Below are positions 9,396-47,815 of a DNA stretch of 64,000 bases, piece after piece (within the stretch, counting starts at the first letter, position 1; the number at the start of each line of letters is the position of its first letter). The stretch is from Escherichia phage vB_EcoM_ACG-C40. A program made the translations under genes and the position numbers. The notes below the pieces were generated by a model that was given only the letters and a program-made list of their open reading frames with translations, searched no databases and had not been told where the DNA came from. Where the stretch lies: the sequence record NC_019399.1; one strand, 5' to 3'.

Positions 9396-10220
9396 TTAGA
9401 TATTTGACCAGACTTTGTTTGCAGAGAAACGTTTTCCTTTTGAAACGAACTGCTGAAGTGGCATTAACACAACGTTCGCCCAGTCTTTCGGGGCGATTTC
9501 AACAAGGCTACCCATAATATTACCAGGTATATATGCCTTAATCATTTGGTCTGCACCCCTAAATCCTTTCACTTGACTCCAATCAATTTTTAATTTCGTT
9601 TTATTAGTAATAGTAGGTGTATTTGCATATTGCTTTAAAAGCTCTTCTAGAAACTGTTGACGAGCTTTAGGTGGAATATAGTGCAAGTTTAATCCGTACA
9701 TTAAATTGTGCTTACCTAAACCAAGGTAAATTATCAAAGGAAATTTATCCCAGTAAGGAAGAGTTTCCTTGTGTTTAGCATCATAAGCAAAAGCATATAT
9801 TCGTCCCGGCTGCGGGCGAACAACTTTATGTCCTTTTACTTGCTTAATAGTTTCAGCAAACCATTTTCTAGTTTTATTATTAATTGCTGCGCCTTCATTA
9901 CGAATTTTATCACGCAATGTTTGTCTGAATGAATTTATCATAAGCAGTTGTCTTTCTTGCTTATTGAGTTTATTCATTGGTTTTGATTCAAGCTTTTGAA
10001 TCTTTTCAGCTGTTTTAATTCCTGAAGCATATTTTGACATTGCTGAAGTAAACGTAGAGTATTTAATTCCTCTTTCTTCAGCAAATTGCTTTCCTGTCAT
10101 TCCTTTTGCTTTGGCCTTTTTATATTCAAGACCTATCTGAATCCATTTCTTTTCGTTTAATGATTGCTTAACCTTTGGAACTTGGGGAGTGCTTTCATTA
10201 ATTATTTGAAAAATAGCCAT
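9396..10220 (-). CDS. 2: gp2 DNA end protector
   Basis: 274-aa ORF in the T4 position between 3 and 4. Confidence 0.8.
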
Positions 10221-10672
10221 TATGCCCCCTTAAAGCCAAGAGCTCGTAATCCATCTTCTGTTAGAATTCTAAATTTTATTCCACGCTTTTCAGCTAAAGA
10301 TTGTGCTGCTTTCCATTTATCAGTGTTCACAGACCAGGTATAAATTTCATTCATAAATCTTTTCTTCGCTGCGGTCGTTAGATGTGCTGGTTTAACTGGT
10401 GGTTGTGTTTCTTTTTTAGGTTTTATTTCAATAAAAAATTCTTGTCCAGAAGAATCTTTCATCCAAATATCCATGAAGTATCTACGTTTTTTCCCTTCTG
10501 CATTACAAAAATAAGGAATTACTGCTGTTTCACTACCCCATGCAATAATTTCTGGATTTTTATCTAACCATTCAAAAAAGAATTTTTCCCAATTTGATCT
10601 ATACGTAATTTTTTTAGGGTCACCTCTATACTTTGATATATTTTTAGGAACCCATTTTCCAGAATATGCCAT
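10220..10672 (-). CDS. 4: gp4 head completion protein
   Basis: 150-aa [24 protein letters not shown]...; T4 position and length. Confidence 0.85.
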
Positions 10673-13043: not shown

Positions 13044-13910
13044 ATGAAAAAATCTAACACAGTTCAATTTAGATACATATATAAAACAACCGTTACTAAT
13101 CCGAAAGGATTAGTACGGGTTTATATTGGTAAACATGAATCTAGATATTTTGATTTAGAAAATGATAAGTATAGAGGTTCCGGTGATTATATTAAAAAGA
13201 TACGTAATAAACCTGGTTATAAAATAGATTTTGAAATAATTGAATTTGTTTCTACTTATGAAATTCTCAATTCAAGAGAAAGATATTGGATTTCGAAATA
13301 TAAATCATCTGATATTCTATGTACCAATATAAAATCCGGCGGTGATGGTTTTTCATCCGAAGATTTGAAGAGAATGTGGTCTAATCCTGAATATAGGAAA
13401 GCTCAATTGAAGGCATTAGCTAAATCAACGTCAACTAAAGAATTTTCAGAGAAAATATCTAAAATAAACAAAGAAAGATGCGCATCGCCAGAATATCGAA
13501 AGAAAATGAGTAATGCGATGAAAACTGCTTTTGAAAATGATCCAACATTAAAAATTCGTATTTCTAATACCGTTAAATCTTTATGGAAATCCGATGAATA
13601 TAGAAACAAATTAATCAATCATCCAGGAAAAATAGAAGGAACGAAACAATCATGGAATGATCCTTTGATAAGAAAATCGAGATTAGATGCTAGAAATAAA
13701 AAACTAAGATCAGTTGAACCTTGGATTAGTATAGAAAAAGTCAAAAAACTTTGGGAGGATTTGGGAAAACCACATCCACAGAAATACAAATGGTTTAGAG
13801 AAAAAGCAATTGAACACGACCTCCCGGATGTAAGTTATAACGCAATTTTAAAAGCGTTGAAAAAATGTGATTATAAATTTACATCATTAGAGAATTCAAC
13901 AATTGGCTAA
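13044..13910 (+). CDS. GIY-YIG homing endonuclease (Seg-like) with four C-terminal repeats
   Basis: N-terminal FRYIYK...VYIGKH...YRGSG...RERYWISKY; repeats WSNPEYRK / SPEYRKK / KSDEYRNK / NDPLIRK. Confidence 0.7.
   Translation: MKKSNTVQFRYIYKTTVTNPKGLVRVYIGKHESRYFDLENDKYRGSGDYIKKIRNKPGYKIDFEIIEFVSTYEILNSRERYWISKYKSSDILCTNIKSGGDGFSSEDLKRMWSNPEYRKAQLKALAKSTSTKEFSEKISKINKERCASPEYRKKMSNAMKTAFENDPTLKIRISNTVKSLWKSDEYRNKLINHPGKIEGTKQSWNDPLIRKSRLDARNKKLRSVEPWISIEKVKKLWEDLGKPHPQKYKWFREKAIEHDLPDVSYNAILKALKKCDYKFTSLENSTIG
13044..13910 (+). mobile_element. freestanding homing-endonuclease gene between gene 5 and the 5.4/6 block
   Basis: GIY-YIG ORF flanked by conserved structural genes. Confidence 0.5.
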
Positions 13911-14439
13911 TATACTTCCAATGAGCGCTGATTTAGGAGAATCCATGGAAGGTTCTTCTATCGACGTCACCTTTACCGCTCAATTAGAAACAGGTGAAAC
14001 GTTAGTATCTATAAATATAACTAGTTACGAAGAAACTCCTGGGGTTTTAGTAGAAGAAAATCGCTTATACGGAACATATGAATCTGTGTTTGGATTTGGA
14101 AATGACGCGTTGAAATATCGTTTAGGCGATGAATTTAAAACTGCTGCTTCATGGGAAGAACTTCCTACTGATTCTGATACTCAGTTGTATTTATGGAAAG
14201 CTCCTCAAAACCTCCAGAAGACATTCACTTACGAAGTAACATTAATATATGACTACCAAGAACAAAGTGAATCTGGAGGTTCTGGCAGTAATTCTAGGTC
14301 ATCTTCTGATACTACTGAACCGACAGATCCTCCTGCTCCAGTAAGAAAAACTCTCGTTAAAAATTATACTAAAACTATAGTTGGAAATTGGAGTCGTTGG
14401 GCTAATAAATTAAGAAGCTATGTGTATGAGAGGTCATAG
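13903..14439 (+). CDS. hypothetical protein; acidic N-half, Ser/Gly-rich linker
   Basis: 178-aa ORF; a stronger RBS (AGGAGAA) precedes the internal ATG at 13945. Confidence 0.55.
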   Translation: MANILPMSADLGESMEGSSIDVTFTAQLETGETLVSINITSYEETPGVLVEENRLYGTYESVFGFGNDALKYRLGDEFKTAASWEELPTDSDTQLYLWKAPQNLQKTFTYEVTLIYDYQEQSESGGSGSNSRSSSDTTEPTDPPAPVRKTLVKNYTKTIVGNWSRWANKLRSYVYERS

Positions 14440-14733
14440 ATGTCAGGATTAAGTTATGATAAATGTGTTACTGCTGGTCATGAAGCATGGCCTCCAACAG
14501 TTGTGAATGCTACACAAAGTAAAGTATTCACTGGAGGAATTGCTGTTCTCGTAGCAGGTGATCTAATTACAGAACATACAGAAATTAAAAAGCCATATGA
14601 AACACATGGCGGAGTGACACAACCCAGAACTTCTAAGGTATATGTCACTGGAAAGAAAGCTGTTCAAATGGCTGATCCAATATCATGCGGTGATACTGTG
14701 GCTCAGGCATCATCTAAAGTATTCATTAAATAG
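14440..14733 (+). CDS. 5.4: gp5.4 PAAR-like spike tip protein
   Basis: 97-aa ORF directly upstream of gene 6; T4 gp5.4 length. Confidence 0.8.
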
Positions 14734-37745: not shown

Positions 37746-38555
37746 ATGCTTAAAGAACAACTGATTGCTGAAGCGCAAAAAATTGATGCTTCCGTTGCTC
37801 TTGATAGTATTTTCGAATCAGTTAATATTTCTCCGGAAGCAAAAGAAACTTTCGGCACTGTATTCGAAGCTACCGTCAAGCAGCACGCCGTTAAATTAGC
37901 TGAATCTCATATCGCTAAAATTGCTGAAAAAGCAGAAGAAGAAGTAGAAAAAAATAAAGAAGAAGCAGAAGAAAAAGCTGAGAAGAAAATCGCTGAGCAA
38001 GCTTCTAAATTCCTTGACCATCTTGCAAAAGAATGGCTCACTGAAAATAAATTAGCAGTAGATAAAGGTATCAAAGCCGAACTGTTTGAATCCATGCTTG
38101 GTGGATTGAAAGAGCTCTTCGTTGAACACAACGTTGTTGTTCCAGAAGAATCAGTTGATGTTGTAGCTGAAATGGAAGAAGAACTGCAAGAACATAAAGA
38201 AGAATCAGCTCGTCTGTTCGAAGAACTCAATAAGCGTGACGCATATATCAATTATGTGCAGCGTGAAGTGGCATTGAGCGAAAGTACTAAAGATCTGACT
38301 GAGTCTCAAAAAGAAAAAGTCTCTGCTCTGGTCGAAGGTATGGATTATTCAGATGCATTCTCAAGTAAATTGAGTGCAATCGTAGAAATGGTGAAGAAAT
38401 CTAATAAAGATGAAAGCACTATTACTGAGAGTATAAATACTCCTGATACTGAAGCAGCCGGACTGAATTTCGTCACTGAAGCTGTAGAAGATAAATCTGC
38501 ACAAGGTGCAGAAGATATTGTAAGTGTATATGCGAAAGTCGCATCTCGTTTCTAA
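37746..38555 (+). CDS. 22: gp22 major prohead scaffolding core protein
   Basis: 269 aa, acidic coiled coil. Confidence 0.95.
   Translation: MLKEQLIAEAQKIDASVALDSIFESVNISPEAKETFGTVFEATVKQHAVKLAESHIAKIAEKAEEEVEKNKEEAEEKAEKKIAEQASKFLDHLAKEWLTENKLAVDKGIKAELFESMLGGLKELFVEHNVVVPEESVDVVAEMEEELQEHKEESARLFEELNKRDAYINYVQREVALSESTKDLTESQKEKVSALVEGMDYSDAFSSKLSAIVEMVKKSNKDESTITESINTPDTEAAGLNFVTEAVEDKSAQGAEDIVSVYAKVASRF
38432..38439 (+). promoter_or_regulatory. late promoter (TATAAATA) for gene 23, inside the 3' end of gene 22
   Basis: Exact TATAAATA about 135 nt upstream of gene 23. Confidence 0.55.
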
Positions 38556-43092: not shown

Positions 43093-43110
43093 AAGGGGCC
43101 GAAGCCCCTT
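43093..43110 (-). repeat. intercistronic GC hairpin AAGGGGC-CGAA-GCCCCTT, copy 2 of 3
   Basis: Identical to the copies at 2144..2161 and 63084..63100. Confidence 0.6.
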
Positions 43111-43129
43111 ATGATTATGATTATGATTA
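43109..43129 (-). repeat. hexanucleotide tandem repeat (TAATCA)x3.5 giving four in-frame TAA stops at the hoc 3' end
   Basis: Minus strand CCA-TAA-TCA-TAA-TCA-TAA-TCA-TAA. Confidence 0.7.
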
Positions 43130-44258
43130 TGGATAGGTGTAGATGATACCAGTTTCTAAAGCAGTTTTATGAATGATGTATCCATTGCGTGATTCTTGAA
43201 CATCAACTTCTGGATAGTCTTTCATCATCTTCTGAAGAGTGTAACGATGCAGGTAGTATTTACTGTCTGGATCTTCAGTTTTCCAATCTTTACCTTCTTC
43301 GGTCATTTTTTGGATTTCATCCATAACCCACCAACCGCACCAGATATAAGCTGAAGTACGATGTGGAAGAGGATGAACATAAGGTAGTTCACCTTCTGGT
43401 TCTGGAGCAACTTTATCAGTTACCTGAACTTGACCTTCTGCTGTAATAGTTTTGCTATCATAATCAGTTGCAGTAACGACAGCAGTAACTTCAATAGTTT
43501 GACTTCCAACAGATGAGGTATCGACAGTATATACGTTAGTTGACCCTTCTACAGGAGAAGAATCTTTCTTCCATGAGTAAGTAATTTGTGCTTCTTCTGG
43601 AGCACCCGTAACATTAGCCGTAAATGTAGCCGAAGCATCTTGCTGAACATTAATAGAAGGAGGAGTCAATGTAACCTGTGGATTCATTGTCTTCTTATTA
43701 ACTGTCAATGATACTTCATTAGAAGTAACTTCCTTTTCATTGTAATTTTCAGCAGTTACTTGCGCTACACACTTGATTTTTTTTAACTCCACTTGTGTCA
43801 GGAGTGTAATTGAATGTAGCGTCAGTTGCTTTGTCTACAGGAGAACCGTCAACGTGCCATTGATACGTAGGGTTTGCACCTGATGGCTGTGAAGCTAAGG
43901 CAGCGGTAAATTCAATTGGAGTTCCAATCACTCCAGCATCAGGGCTACCAGGAGTTACAGCTAAAGTAGTTGTTTGTGTCTTATTTTGAACTGTGATAGT
44001 TGTACTAATTTCTGCTGTTTCAGGTTCAGATTCTGCAACTTGATTGGTTGCAACTACTTTAATAGTCTTTTGACCGGCAGGTCCTTTTAGTACATAACTA
44101 AAAGTTGCTGACGTTTCTTCCTGTGGAGCGTCGTCTACAGTCCAAGCATATGTAATAGATCCATCTCCAGTTTGACCACTGGGTGTAGCAGTAAACTGCT
44201 GAGTCTGATCTATAACTCCAGTAGGTGTTTTAGGAGTTATATCAACTGTAAAAGTCAT
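43127..44258 (-). pseudogene. hoc: hoc outer capsid protein with a +1 frameshift in an A8 homopolymer
   Basis: N-terminal ORF 43749..44258 and C-terminal ORF 43127..43792 are both Hoc-like; frames switch at 43777..43784. Confidence 0.8.
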
Positions 44259-44267
44259 AAGTTATCC

Positions 44268-44948
44268 TTATTTTAATGTTACGAAAGAAGAGTTGCGTGT
44301 TTCACGAATTAAAACTGATCCGTCACGGTTAATGTAATAAATTAAGCTAAATAAAGTTTGGTGTGCTGACGCATGTTCAAAACTAGTTGGGTGAGATTTC
44401 CAATCAGGAGTTTCAGCAATCCATTGATAAATCCACCAAGGAACAGTACAGAATCCTGGATTTTTTCCAATCAACTGAAGATTCGGGCTAAAGTTTTCCG
44501 GAAGAGTAAATACAGACGGCTTTTCAGATTCAATAATCTCAGCTACAGCCTGTTCAAATTTTTCTTCAACAAATGGAGTATCTTCAATCAAAACATCGGT
44601 ATTTTCAGGAATTTTATCTGTTTCTACTACTTCAATTTTAATGTCAGATTTAACCGGAGAATCAATCAAAAGTGCTGCTTCTGGATTGACTTCTTCATCG
44701 TCATATTTTAACCCCTCTGCAGCATCAGCAGCATCAATTAAGTCTTTAATAGATAACCCATCAGTCTCCGGCATAGGTTCACTAGCGAGCTTCTGGAGGG
44801 CTTCTTCAATATCAACAACGATATTATCAAAAGATTTATTCTTTTTGACCTTTATACCAAACTGTTCAGCATATTCAGCTAATTTAGCTTTAGCTTCTTT
44901 GTTATCATCAAGAGCCTTCAGCTCTGCAATATAATCTTTATCTATCAT
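44268..44948 (-). CDS. inh: Inh, inhibitor of prohead protease gp21
   Basis: 226-aa acidic protein in the T4 position after hoc. Confidence 0.8.
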   Translation of the reverse strand: MIDKDYIAELKALDDNKEAKAKLAEYAEQFGIKVKKNKSFDNIVVDIEEALQKLASEPMPETDGLSIKDLIDAADAAEGLKYDDEEVNPEAALLIDSPVKSDIKIEVVETDKIPENTDVLIEDTPFVEEKFEQAVAEIIESEKPSVFTLPENFSPNLQLIGKNPGFCTVPWWIYQWIAETPDWKSHPTSFEHASAHQTLFSLIYYINRDGSVLIRETRNSSFVTLK

Positions 44949-44997: not shown

Positions 44998-45615
44998 ATG
45001 TACCACTTTGTATATGAAACAACAAATCTAATAAATGGTAAAAAGTATATAGGAAAACACTCTACTGATGACTTGAATGATGGTTACCTTGGTTCCGGTA
45101 AGGCAATTCAGCAGGCTATAAAGAAATATGGTGAAAACAATTTCTCTAGAACAATACTAAAAGAGTTTAAAACTTCCGAAGAAGCGTACATGTATGAAGA
45201 AGAAATTATAACTCCTGAAATAATAAAAAGCAAAAATTATTATAATATGAAACCTGGCGGAATTGGTGGAATTGTTATGACTACAGAGGTTATAGCAAAG
45301 ATGAAAGAATCTTCCGCTAAGAGATTTGAAAACTCACCGGGCACGGTATTAGGTACAACTTGTTACACTAATGGAACTAAAAATATTTTTATTAAGCCTG
45401 GAGAACTTGTTCCAGAAGGATTTGTAAAAGGGATGGTTCATCCTAATAGAAAGTCCAGAAAAGGATGTAAAGTCAAACCGACTACCACAGGAACTTTTTG
45501 GGTCAATAATGGTGCAATAAATAAATTAATACAACCAGACGGTATTATTCCCGACGGATTTATTAAAGGTCGTCTCATGAAAAGAGATTCTAAAGGCAAA
45601 TTTAGTAAGGCATAA
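44998..45615 (+). CDS. segE: GIY-YIG homing endonuclease, SegE-like
   Basis: 205 aa; YHFVYETTNLINGKKYIGKH...YLGSG...EEAYMYEEE...YNMKPGG. Confidence 0.75.
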   Translation: MYHFVYETTNLINGKKYIGKHSTDDLNDGYLGSGKAIQQAIKKYGENNFSRTILKEFKTSEEAYMYEEEIITPEIIKSKNYYNMKPGGIGGIVMTTEVIAKMKESSAKRFENSPGTVLGTTCYTNGTKNIFIKPGELVPEGFVKGMVHPNRKSRKGCKVKPTTTGTFWVNNGAINKLIQPDGIIPDGFIKGRLMKRDSKGKFSKA

Positions 45616-45617
45616 TT

Positions 45618-47126
45618 ATGGATATTAAAGTACATTTTCACGACTTCAGTCATGTACGCATCGATTGTGAAGAGAGCACGTTCCACGAATTAAGAGATTT
45701 CTTTTCGTTTGAGGCCGATGGATATAGATTTAACCCTCGCTTCAGATATGGCAACTGGGATGGACGAATTCGTCTTTTAGATTATAATCGCCTTCTTCCA
45801 TTCGGTTTAGTCGGGCAAATTAAAAAGTTCTGCGATAACTTTGGCTATAAAGCCTGGATTGACCCACAGATTAACGAAAAAGAAGAATTATCAAGAAAAG
45901 ATTTTGATGAATGGCTTTCTAAATTAGAAATCTATTCAGGAAATAAAAGAATTGAACCGCATTGGTATCAAAAAGATGCAGTGTTCGAAGGATTAGTTAA
46001 TCGTCGTAGAATTCTTAATCTTCCAACATCCGCAGGTAAATCTTTAATTCAAGCTTTGCTTGCTCGGTATTATTTGGAAAATTATGAAGGCAAAATTCTT
46101 ATTATTGTTCCAACAACTGCTCTGACAACTCAGATGGCTGATGACTTTGTTGACTATCGTTTATTCAGTCATGCAATGATAAAGAAAATCGGTGGTGGAG
46201 CATCAAAAGATGATAAATATAAAAATGATGCACCGGTCGTTGTTGGTACATGGCAAACTGTAGTAAAACAACCGAAAGAATGGTTCTCACAGTTTGGAAT
46301 GATGATGAATGATGAATGTCATCTTGCTACAGGAAAAAGTATTTCATCTATCATATCAGGTTTAAATAACTGCATGTTCAAATTCGGTTTGTCTGGTTCA
46401 TTACGTGATGGCAAAGCCAATATCATGCAGTATGTTGGAATGTTCGGTGAAATATTTAAGCCAGTAACGACCTCTAAATTAATGGAAGATGGACAAGTAA
46501 CTGAGTTAAAAATTAATAGTATTTTTCTTCGCTATCCCGATGAGTTCACTACTAAATTAAAGGGAAAAACTTATCAAGAAGAAATAAAAATTATTACTGG
46601 GCTTAGTAAAAGAAATAAATGGATCGCTAAATTAGCTATTAAGCTTGCGCAAAAAGATGAAAACGCTTTTGTCATGTTTAAACATGTATCGCACGGTAAA
46701 GCTATTTTCGATTTAATTAAAAATGAATACGATAAAGTTTATTACGTATCAGGGGAAGTTGATACCGAAACCCGCAATATAATGAAAACCTTAGCTGAAA
46801 ATGGTAAAGGAATAATTATAGTAGCGAGTTATGGTGTATTTTCTACTGGTATTTCAGTTAAAAATCTGCATCATGTTGTTTTAGCGCACGGTGTTAAATC
46901 TAAAATTATTGTATTGCAAACAATAGGTCGCGTATTACGTAAGCATGGTTCTAAGACAATAGCAACAGTCTGGGACCTCATAGATGACGCGGGCGTGGTT
47001 TCTAAATCAAAAACATCTTCTAAAAAATACTCGCATTTAAACTATCTTTTAAAACATGGACTTGATCGTATTCAGCGTTATGCTGATGAAAAGTTTAATT
47101 ATGTGATGAAAGAGGTTAAACTTTGA
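45618..47126 (+). CDS. uvsW: UvsW DNA/RNA helicase
   Basis: 502 aa; motifs LPTSAGKS and DECH. Confidence 0.9.
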   Translation: MDIKVHFHDFSHVRIDCEESTFHELRDFFSFEADGYRFNPRFRYGNWDGRIRLLDYNRLLPFGLVGQIKKFCDNFGYKAWIDPQINEKEELSRKDFDEWLSKLEIYSGNKRIEPHWYQKDAVFEGLVNRRRILNLPTSAGKSLIQALLARYYLENYEGKILIIVPTTALTTQMADDFVDYRLFSHAMIKKIGGGASKDDKYKNDAPVVVGTWQTVVKQPKEWFSQFGMMMNDECHLATGKSISSIISGLNNCMFKFGLSGSLRDGKANIMQYVGMFGEIFKPVTTSKLMEDGQVTELKINSIFLRYPDEFTTKLKGKTYQEEIKIITGLSKRNKWIAKLAIKLAQKDENAFVMFKHVSHGKAIFDLIKNEYDKVYYVSGEVDTETRNIMKTLAENGKGIIIVASYGVFSTGISVKNLHHVVLAHGVKSKIIVLQTIGRVLRKHGSKTIATVWDLIDDAGVVSKSKTSSKKYSHLNYLLKHGLDRIQRYADEKFNYVMKEVKL

Positions 47127-47815
47127 ATTATAAATTAATATATGATAATTTAATTAATAGAGCCCAGAATCGGGCTCGCCTTAATGGATACACTGAAACT
47201 CATCATATAATTCCTAGATGTATGGGTGGTACAGATGATAGGTGTAATTTAGTAGAACTAACAGCTGAAGAACATTTTATAGCCCATAAACTTTTAGCTA
47301 AAATTCATCCAAATCATTACGGTATAATTAAAGCCGTTATATGTATGGGAATGAACTCAAAGACTCATGAAAGACACGTTAATAAATCTTACGCATGGGA
47401 ACGTCGTAAAATGGCAGAACTTCAATCCGGTGAAGGTAATCCATTTTACGGAAAACACCATACGGAAGAACATAAACAATATATGTCAAAACTCATGAAA
47501 AGTCGTCCAATTACATGGGGAAATAAAATTAGTAAAACTAAAAGAATGAACCCAACAAAATGGACCGAAGAAGCTAAAAGATTACATTCAATCAATCAAT
47601 CGGGTAAAAATAATGGCATGTATGGAAGGAAACATTCCGCTAAATCTATTCAGAAAATTAAAGATAACATGCCAGATAATTCAGGAGCTAATAACCCAGC
47701 TGCTAAACCTATAGAAGTAAATGGTGTTAAATATAAATGTATGAAAGACGCTTCTAAAGCTACTGGATTATCAATGTACAAACTAAGAATACTCAGAAAA
47801 ACAGTTAATTTATAA
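47123..47815 (+). CDS. HNH homing endonuclease with NUMOD-like DNA-binding repeats
   Basis: HNH core THHIIPRCMGGTDDRCNLVELTAEEHFIAH; repeats GNPFYGKHHTEEHK and NNGMYGRKHSAKS; ATGA overlap with the uvsW stop. Confidence 0.8.
   Translation: MNYKLIYDNLINRAQNRARLNGYTETHHIIPRCMGGTDDRCNLVELTAEEHFIAHKLLAKIHPNHYGIIKAVICMGMNSKTHERHVNKSYAWERRKMAELQSGEGNPFYGKHHTEEHKQYMSKLMKSRPITWGNKISKTKRMNPTKWTEEAKRLHSINQSGKNNGMYGRKHSAKSIQKIKDNMPDNSGANNPAAKPIEVNGVKYKCMKDASKATGLSMYKLRILRKTVNL
47123..47815 (+). mobile_element. freestanding homing-endonuclease gene inserted between uvsW and uvsW.1
   Basis: HNH ORF lies exactly between two genes that I recall as adjacent in T4. Confidence 0.55.

Follow-up and report, generated by a model that had tools for sequence, protein, structure and literature searches.

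The 64-kb window analysed here, which is the whole stretch of 64,000 nucleotides taken from Escherichia phage vB_EcoM_ACG-C40, carries the gene hoc (highly immunogenic outer capsid protein) on its minus strand, in the gene order inh - hoc - 24.3 - 24.2 - rnlB that is also found in the annotated T6, UKE3-1, PYps35T and T2 loci. The features of this locus and the other features of the window referred to below are listed in Table 1. The ribosome-binding site of hoc overlaps the stop codon of inh and hoc is therefore read straight after inh, while a strong intrinsic terminator hairpin with a T-rich tail is located downstream of hoc. Between the hoc stop codon and this hairpin, the hexamer TCATAA, each unit of which contains TAA, is repeated three times in tandem; it is present as a single copy in T6, and 12 nt are missing here in PYps35T, so that the array is a small length-variable repeat. 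Two homing-endonuclease-like open reading frames (ORFs) flank the uvsW gene. One of these ORFs encodes a GIY-YIG protein of the SegE type (PF19835, E 3e-9), and NUMOD3 motifs (E 7.5e-14) are present in the other. No nucleotide similarity to the closest relative, PYps35T, was found over either of them, suggesting that they are probably mobile insertions. In addition, a 288-aa ORF directly after the gp5-like gene is located in a stretch of about 900 bp that is dissimilar to PYps35T, and it had no Pfam match at E <= 0.001.

Table 1. Positions of the hoc features and of other features in the 64-kb window of phage vB_EcoM_ACG-C40.
Feature	Position	Strand	Remarks
hoc, whole locus	44258..43127	minus	
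hoc ribosome-binding site AAGGA	44269..44265	minus	overlaps the inh stop codon (44270..44268)
hoc N-terminal ORF	44258..43749	minus	169 aa, ending in ...TSGVKKNQVCSASNC and a stop; ORF table
hoc C-terminal open frame	43792 to 43127	minus	221 aa, one base ahead (+1); reads ...KKIKCVAQVTAENYNEKEV... (KKIKCVAQVTA)
SD-like GGAG (Gly GGA plus the G of Val GTT)	43790..43787	minus	2 nt upstream of the A-run; sequence read
A8 homopolymer, frameshift site	43784..43777	minus (T8 on plus)	sequence read and relatives
hoc C-terminal coding part, +1 frame	43776..43127	minus	from IKCVAQ... to a TAA stop codon
First ATG in the open C-terminal frame (MNPQV...)	43687..43685	minus	preceded by AAGAAG; sequence read
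TCATAA hexamer, three tandem copies	43126-43109	minus	between hoc stop codon and terminator hairpin
Intrinsic terminator hairpin AAGGGGCTTCGGCCCCTT with T-rich tail	43110..43093	minus	downstream of hoc; strong hairpin
gp4 head-completion ORF	10220-10672	minus	7-run at 10609-10615; in frame
288-aa ORF	13044-13910	plus	directly after gp5-like gene
gp22 scaffold ORF	37746-38555	plus	7-run at 37948-37954; in frame
Homing-endonuclease-like ORF, flanking uvsW	44998-45615	plus	
Homing-endonuclease-like ORF, flanking uvsW	47123-47815	plus	

Read directly on the minus strand, the sequence across the break in hoc is ...ACAAGTGGAGTTAAAAAAAATCAAGTGTGTAGC..., and the codons over the break are ACT CCT GAC ACA AGT GGA GTT AAA AAA AAT CAA GTG TGT AGC GCA AGT AAC TGC TGA. 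The A8 run claimed by the sequence-only reading was thus present, at the position given in Table 1. In the nearest relatives the site has an A7 run, which encodes Lys-Lys and the first base of an Ile codon. Hoc is expected to be encoded by a single uninterrupted frame, and the A8 run of ACG-C40 splits it into a 169-aa and a 221-aa frame. The 169 codons of the N-terminal ORF consist of 160 authentic Hoc residues, which span the first Ig domain and most of the second, and 9 out-of-frame codons (NQVCSASNC) followed by a TGA stop; the sequence-only reading had put this tail at 13 codons, which is too many. In a search of the protein database, the 169-aa ORF matched with 100% identity the 'head outer capsid protein' that has been deposited for ACG-C40. 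The C-terminal ORF resumes one base ahead as IKCVAQVTA, as proposed from the sequence and as listed in the ORF table, and when one A was removed from the run in silico a 376-aa product was obtained, the length that had been estimated for the restored gene. Because the repaired gene carries no second lesion, the change in ACG-C40 hoc is regarded as recent. Based on the Pfam domain positions, Ig domain 2 is interrupted by the break, at residue 161. The first in-frame ATG of the C-terminal frame, at 43687, could start a putative product of 186 aa with Ig domain 3 and the capsid-binding domain, and in a relative with an A6 run (L018) an ORF of 186 aa was called downstream of its break, the matching length suggesting that it starts at the homologous ATG.

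The identity of the gene as hoc, already proposed in the sequence-only reading, was well supported, since T4 Hoc (PDB 5vf3_Z) and the 376-aa product of the repaired gene align over their whole length (residues 1-376 on 1-376, E 1.9e-209). It also matches PHROG 1149, 'Hoc-like head decoration' (E 6e-123), has matches to the Pfam families PKD, I-set and Ig_3 at residues 100-171 and 193-277, and is covered over residues 312-376 by the C-terminal PHROG 21694. The domain architecture and roles described for Hoc (PMC10385173) are consistent with the repaired product. The gene of the window is a Hoc orthologue in all respects but one, the intact reading frame. The same source places capsid binding in the C-terminal domain, residues 281-376, and calls the gene non-essential in the laboratory, which agrees with the dispensability assumed by the sequence-only reading. 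Because the capsid-binding domain is lost by the break, the 169-aa product should not attach to capsids, and Hoc would be expected to be absent from the virions.

The length of Hoc differs by whole Ig domains among close relatives, with 283 aa for two Ig domains, 376 aa for three and approximately 471 aa for four, as compared at the loci L004 (PYps35T, 13295-14710), L015-L017, L090 (Bas39) and P0007/P0016. The repeated Ig domains carry paralogous copies of the motif TSGVK(R/K)IKC approximately 288 nt apart, and the three-Ig allele of the window looks hybrid, with a junction just downstream of the A-run. These sequence comparisons suggest that Ig domains may be gained and lost in Hoc by recombination between the repeats.

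The nearest hoc relatives, fHoEco02, teqhad and 101112UKE3-1, all have A7 at the site and an intact hoc of 1131 nt, indicating that the state in the window is A7 plus one base. The hoc gene of fHoEco02 is 98.8% identical to the window downstream of the run, while those of teqhad and 101112UKE3-1 are 98.7% and 99.1% identical, respectively, upstream of it. Over 133 nt of flanking sequence, fHoEco02 and teqhad have 5 differences each from the window, the fewest among the relatives compared, and no record at least 99% identical to the window was present in the phage collection. A query of 78 nt across the site matched 117 phage records, and among the first 60 of these 117 records listed, 54 had the in-frame length, 5 were one base short and 1 was one base long. 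The same pattern was observed in a spread sample of further records, where SV76 and more T2 records joined the class that is one base short.

The hoc genes of two other T-even phages are disrupted at the same run. In T6 the site reads GGAGTTAAAAAGAATTAA (also given as GTTAAAAAGAAT), with one extra A at the same codon, and two independent records are identical. The T4 sequence at this site, which we take to be GTTAAAAGAAT / GGAGTTAAAAGAATTAAA, lacks this base, and the T4-type records are one base shorter than T6 over this stretch; the T6 hoc is annotated as two coding sequences or not at all. In T2 the site reads GGAGTTAAAAAATC, an A6 run that is one base short, and the gene also has deletions of 11 bp and 2 bp. 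The 11-bp deletion and the base missing from the A6 run amount to 12 bases lost (L007, NC_054931, 620-1800), so that the frame returns after the run, and it is then lost again through the 2-bp deletion, which is located close to the 3' end, making the gene a multi-lesion pseudogene. The T2 and T6 records either show hoc as two annotated fragments or give no annotation for it.

Beyond T6 and T2/SV76, the latter with A6, DNA look-ups identified A6 at the run in PM107, 101117BS1, UPWr_E2 and Logan SRR29423813, and PM108 is likewise one base short at the hoc site (A6). Three further samples yielded assemblies with A8 at the run (Logan ERR3531242, Logan SRR8865578 and ENA ERZ28496081), although these A8 alleles may share ancestry through recombination and need not be independent events. 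PM105 carries the T6-type extra A at the first site, on other flanks, together with A6 at a paralogous site. We also considered whether the T6-type null allele is widely spread and rejected this, as only three T6 records had it at 100% and PM105 has it on different flanks. At the protein level, 9 of about 16 clusters of truncated Hoc N-terminal fragments recovered by the protein database search end exactly in ...GVKK before the tail; five of them have the +1 tail (N...), namely ACG-C40, two from Logan/ENA, T6 and one further from Logan, and four have the -1 tail (SSV or LSV, then a stop), namely CE1, UPWr_E2 and two from SRA/ENA. Among alleles with 0 differences over the 133-nt flanks, A6 (PM107, 101117BS1), A7 (Bas39) and A8 (Logan ERR3531242) all occur. 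As judged from sequence, the run thus has two of the marks of a contingency locus, A7 giving the intact product and A6 or A8 a truncated one, with length polymorphism on identical flanks. One-base changes were commoner at A7 than at A4-G alleles. In four-Ig Hoc variants, the TSGVK(R/K)IKC copies at paralogous sites are mutated as well; Bas39 (FriedrichMiescher, MZ501066, L090), for example, has an intact A7 at the first site and a G5 versus G4 frameshift at the paralogous site in the next Ig domain (locus position approximately 1489), and the annotation divides the gene into 'Hoc part 1/part 2'.

Some of the searches were specific to the window's own allele. No record in the phage collection had A8 on the window's own flanks, the A8 pattern had 0 matches in IMG/VR, and the exact truncated ORFs of the window were absent from the contig index and occurred once in the protein database. 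The gapped pattern GGAGTTN{5,10}TYAARTGYGTAGC matched 7 loci in IMG/VR and 67 in metagenomes, which were mostly chance matches; two loci were read directly (L010 and L013), and the hoc sites with an A-run-type allele recovered in this way numbered six, too few for a census.

The run is also exceptional within the window itself. Only one A/T run of at least 8, the A8 of hoc, was found in the 64 kb, in comparison to 29.5 expected from dinucleotide-preserving shuffles, and the hoc run is therefore not a chance feature. A/T runs of at least 7 were found at three loci in comparison to 86.6 expected matches, a depletion of about 20-fold in the window. Codon usage in the 66 long ORFs of the window followed the same direction, since AAA makes up 81% of the Lys codons and yet only 2 of 27 Lys-Lys pairs flanked by A (those of hoc and gp4) are coded AAAAAA, in comparison to 17.8 expected. 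The genome thus avoids long A-runs by using AAG, and hoc is a rare exception and the broken one. The only two other A/T 7-runs in the window are located in the gp4 and gp22 ORFs (Table 1). Both gp4 and gp22 are essential in T4. Their 7-runs are potential slippage-lethal sites, and they would be useful internal controls for the accuracy of homopolymer sequencing. Runs of at least 7 A are thus strongly avoided elsewhere yet retained in the hoc of many genomes, an observation that is explained equally well by selection for mutability and by a relaxation of constraint in a gene that the phage can do without.

The frameshifted hoc of ACG-C40 is already in the published record. Chibeu et al. 2012 (PMC3347319) sequenced this phage with 454 pyrosequencing as the sole method, at a coverage of 195-930x. 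They described "two versions of Hoc", for which they suggested translational frameshifting, and their paper contains neither a confirmation of the site nor protein data on Hoc. Our literature searches found no published description of a frameshift hotspot in hoc, and we believe that the recurrence of one-base changes in either direction at this run across T4-like phages, T2 and T6 among them, is new. The sequence-only reading had offered a null allele, a sequencing error or a slippage site as explanations, and the same three remain, with a real or population-level slippage allele now favoured. The in-frame state of the relatives speaks against programmed slippage, and the sequencing-error option was kept because the ACG-C40 genome was obtained by 454 sequencing.

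The main competing explanation is that the eighth A is an artefact of homopolymer overcalling, so that the real phage has A7 and an intact hoc, which we consider possible but less probable than a real allele. The typical consensus error of 454 sequencing is the gain or loss of one base in long homopolymers, and the break sits in the single longest homopolymer of the window, in a genome for which 454 was the only platform and for which no confirmation of the site was reported (PMC3347319). The A7 of the nearest relatives, and the perfect 376-aa Hoc with no other lesion that the removal of one base yields, also speak for an overcall. Against this, the 454 coverage was high, and hoc alone among the 87 reference ORFs compared in the window is split across frames, which indicates that the assembly is not riddled with homopolymer errors and led us to reject a generally error-ridden assembly. 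The gp4 and gp22 genes, which carry A7/T7 runs, are intact, and the other 1-bp differences from PYps35T look intergenic, as judged by their sequence context. A8 was also present in the three assemblies from other samples, one of which has SPAdes-style contig names, and the A6 state occurs in many recent genomes, so that frameshifted alleles at this run are biologically real in the phage group.

Programmed recoding, in which A8 would be a designed slippery site and +1 ribosomal frameshifting or transcriptional slippage would give the 169-aa and the 376-aa Hoc in a set ratio, appears very improbable to us, even though translational frameshifting is what Chibeu et al. 2012 (PMC3347319) proposed for the two Hoc versions. 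The codons AAA AAA AAU, read from the sequence, would let tRNA-Lys re-pair perfectly after a +1 shift to give ...GVKKIKC..., and some transcriptional slippage can be supported by A8 runs, as in about a tenth of apoB product and in some IS elements, which use 8 A's (PMC1088944). The GGAG, which precedes the run by 2 nt, might in principle promote a +1 shift as well, but its presence is explained by the conserved TSGVK coding motif, whose Gly-Val codons recur in each Ig domain and fix it. The A site would hold neither a slow nor a stop codon, the next codon being AAU, an ordinary sense codon, and no stable RNA structure beyond that of shuffled controls was found downstream of the run (z = -0.04). 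The frameshifted arrangement is not conserved, as the closest relatives have A7 and one ORF and, of the first 60 records listed, 54 had the in-frame length. Among the relatives, runs one base short and runs one base long both exist and T2 has added lesions, and the shifts in both directions together with the accumulation of lesions in T2 are the marks of mutation and not of recoding. The 169-aa product ends inside an Ig fold and has no capsid-binding domain, and no role for it is therefore apparent.

Building on the lesion, its exact repair, the in-frame relatives and the recurrence at the same run, we consider the best reading to be that hoc was switched off in ACG-C40 by an A7 to A8 insertion through replication slippage at a recurrent hotspot, a reading we hold with somewhat better than even confidence. 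One-base gains and losses in both directions on identical backgrounds are the classical signature of replication slippage. A recent preprint (bioRxiv 10.1101/2025.10.21.683753) showed that homopolymers of at least 6 in T2, T4 and T6 are hypermutable and give reversible frameshifts, with a mean indel frequency of 2.9e-4 over 168 T2 repeats, and named such sites phage 'contingency loci'. In the case of hoc, strand slippage of the replicative DNA polymerase on the homopolymer would have added one base to A7, translation of the A8 gene would stop after the 160 authentic residues and 9 out-of-frame codons, and the allele would persist because hoc is non-essential. Indels in both directions would recur at this tract in T4-like phages, where A6, A7 and A8 are all found on one background, and since the hotspot works both ways the sequenced A8 may be one phase of a mixed, reversible population. 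The allele may also be leaky, as slippage of RNA polymerase or of the ribosome could still yield a little full-length Hoc from A8, which is close to the slippage threshold of approximately 9 nt and occasionally productive (PMC1088944), and internal initiation at the ATG at 43687 would be a second possible route to partial function.

That the Lys-Lys A7 tract in Ig domain 2 of Hoc and the paralogous tracts of longer variants form an evolved on/off switch, as opposed to a merely tolerated weak spot, is a further step that we regard as rather unlikely. If it were true, T4-like phages would keep a mixture of Hoc-decorated and bare capsids via reversible A6/A7/A8 slippage, hedging the benefits of Hoc (mucus or cell-surface adherence and dispersion) against its costs (immunogenicity, synthesis and host targeting), and ACG-C40 would have been sequenced in the off phase.

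The slippage allele that we favour bears on annotation and application in several ways. The split hoc of ACG-C40 is better annotated as a frameshifted gene or pseudogene, or flagged, than presented as two proteins or as a programmed frameshift. Hoc is a platform for T4 display and vaccines and a proposed mucus-adherence factor of T4-like phages, and ACG-C40 and several of its relatives are candidates for phage therapy. If a large share of T4-like phages, from nature and from the laboratory alike, switch Hoc off at one predictable A-run, the Hoc status of a phage cannot be assumed from its species identity, and as immunogenicity, mucus binding and aggregation depend on that status, checking at the A-run is advised. 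The hoc run also offers a natural test case for the proposed phage contingency loci.

Several known systems may be compared with the break in the window. In T6, hoc is disrupted at the same run as in the window, the difference being that its insertion is in an A4-G context and not in A7. In T2 the gene is again disrupted at the same run, but deletions of 11 bp and of 2 bp are present in addition and it is therefore an old pseudogene, while the window has a single, cleanly repairable lesion. In the lattice work of Yanagida in the 1970s, T2 and T6 capsids were reportedly without decoration proteins. Among systems that give two products, T7/K1F gene 10A/10B (a -1 shift) and lambda G/GT yield proteins with different C-termini from one locus, and they are the model invoked by the ACG-C40 authors. 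The T7/K1F and lambda sites are conserved, however, and shift by -1, whereas hoc needs +1, has relatives in frame and gives a short product without the capsid-binding domain. In tssM of Citrobacter rodentium (PMC4256274), and in the A8 of apoB and in IS elements (PMC1088944), a poly-A frameshift is partly corrected in RNA, giving truncated and full-length products; efficient rescue by transcriptional slippage usually needs at least 9 A/T, whereas hoc has A8 and its frameshifted state is not conserved.

Other parallels are offered by slippage sites. The contingency loci T2 agt and T4 rIIA (Gomez, Barrick and Waters, bioRxiv 10.1101/2025.10.21.683753) are homopolymers of at least 6 in non-essential T-even genes, where, as proposed for hoc, one-base polymerase slippage toggles the gene. 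Length variants among close relatives are a shared feature, although hoc was not highlighted in that study. For the T2 A6 run at the hoc site, the row shown gave 0 variants among 2238 reads. At the hotspots of Streisinger in T4 rII and lysozyme, and in bacterial phase-variable poly-A and poly-G tracts, the run misaligns in replication with a frequency that rises with its length. The Streisinger cases are frameshifts of plus or minus one base as at hoc, and they were established genetically whereas the case for hoc comes from comparative sequence, on which the lesion in ACG-C40 appears to work like a Streisinger hotspot or a contingency-locus allele.
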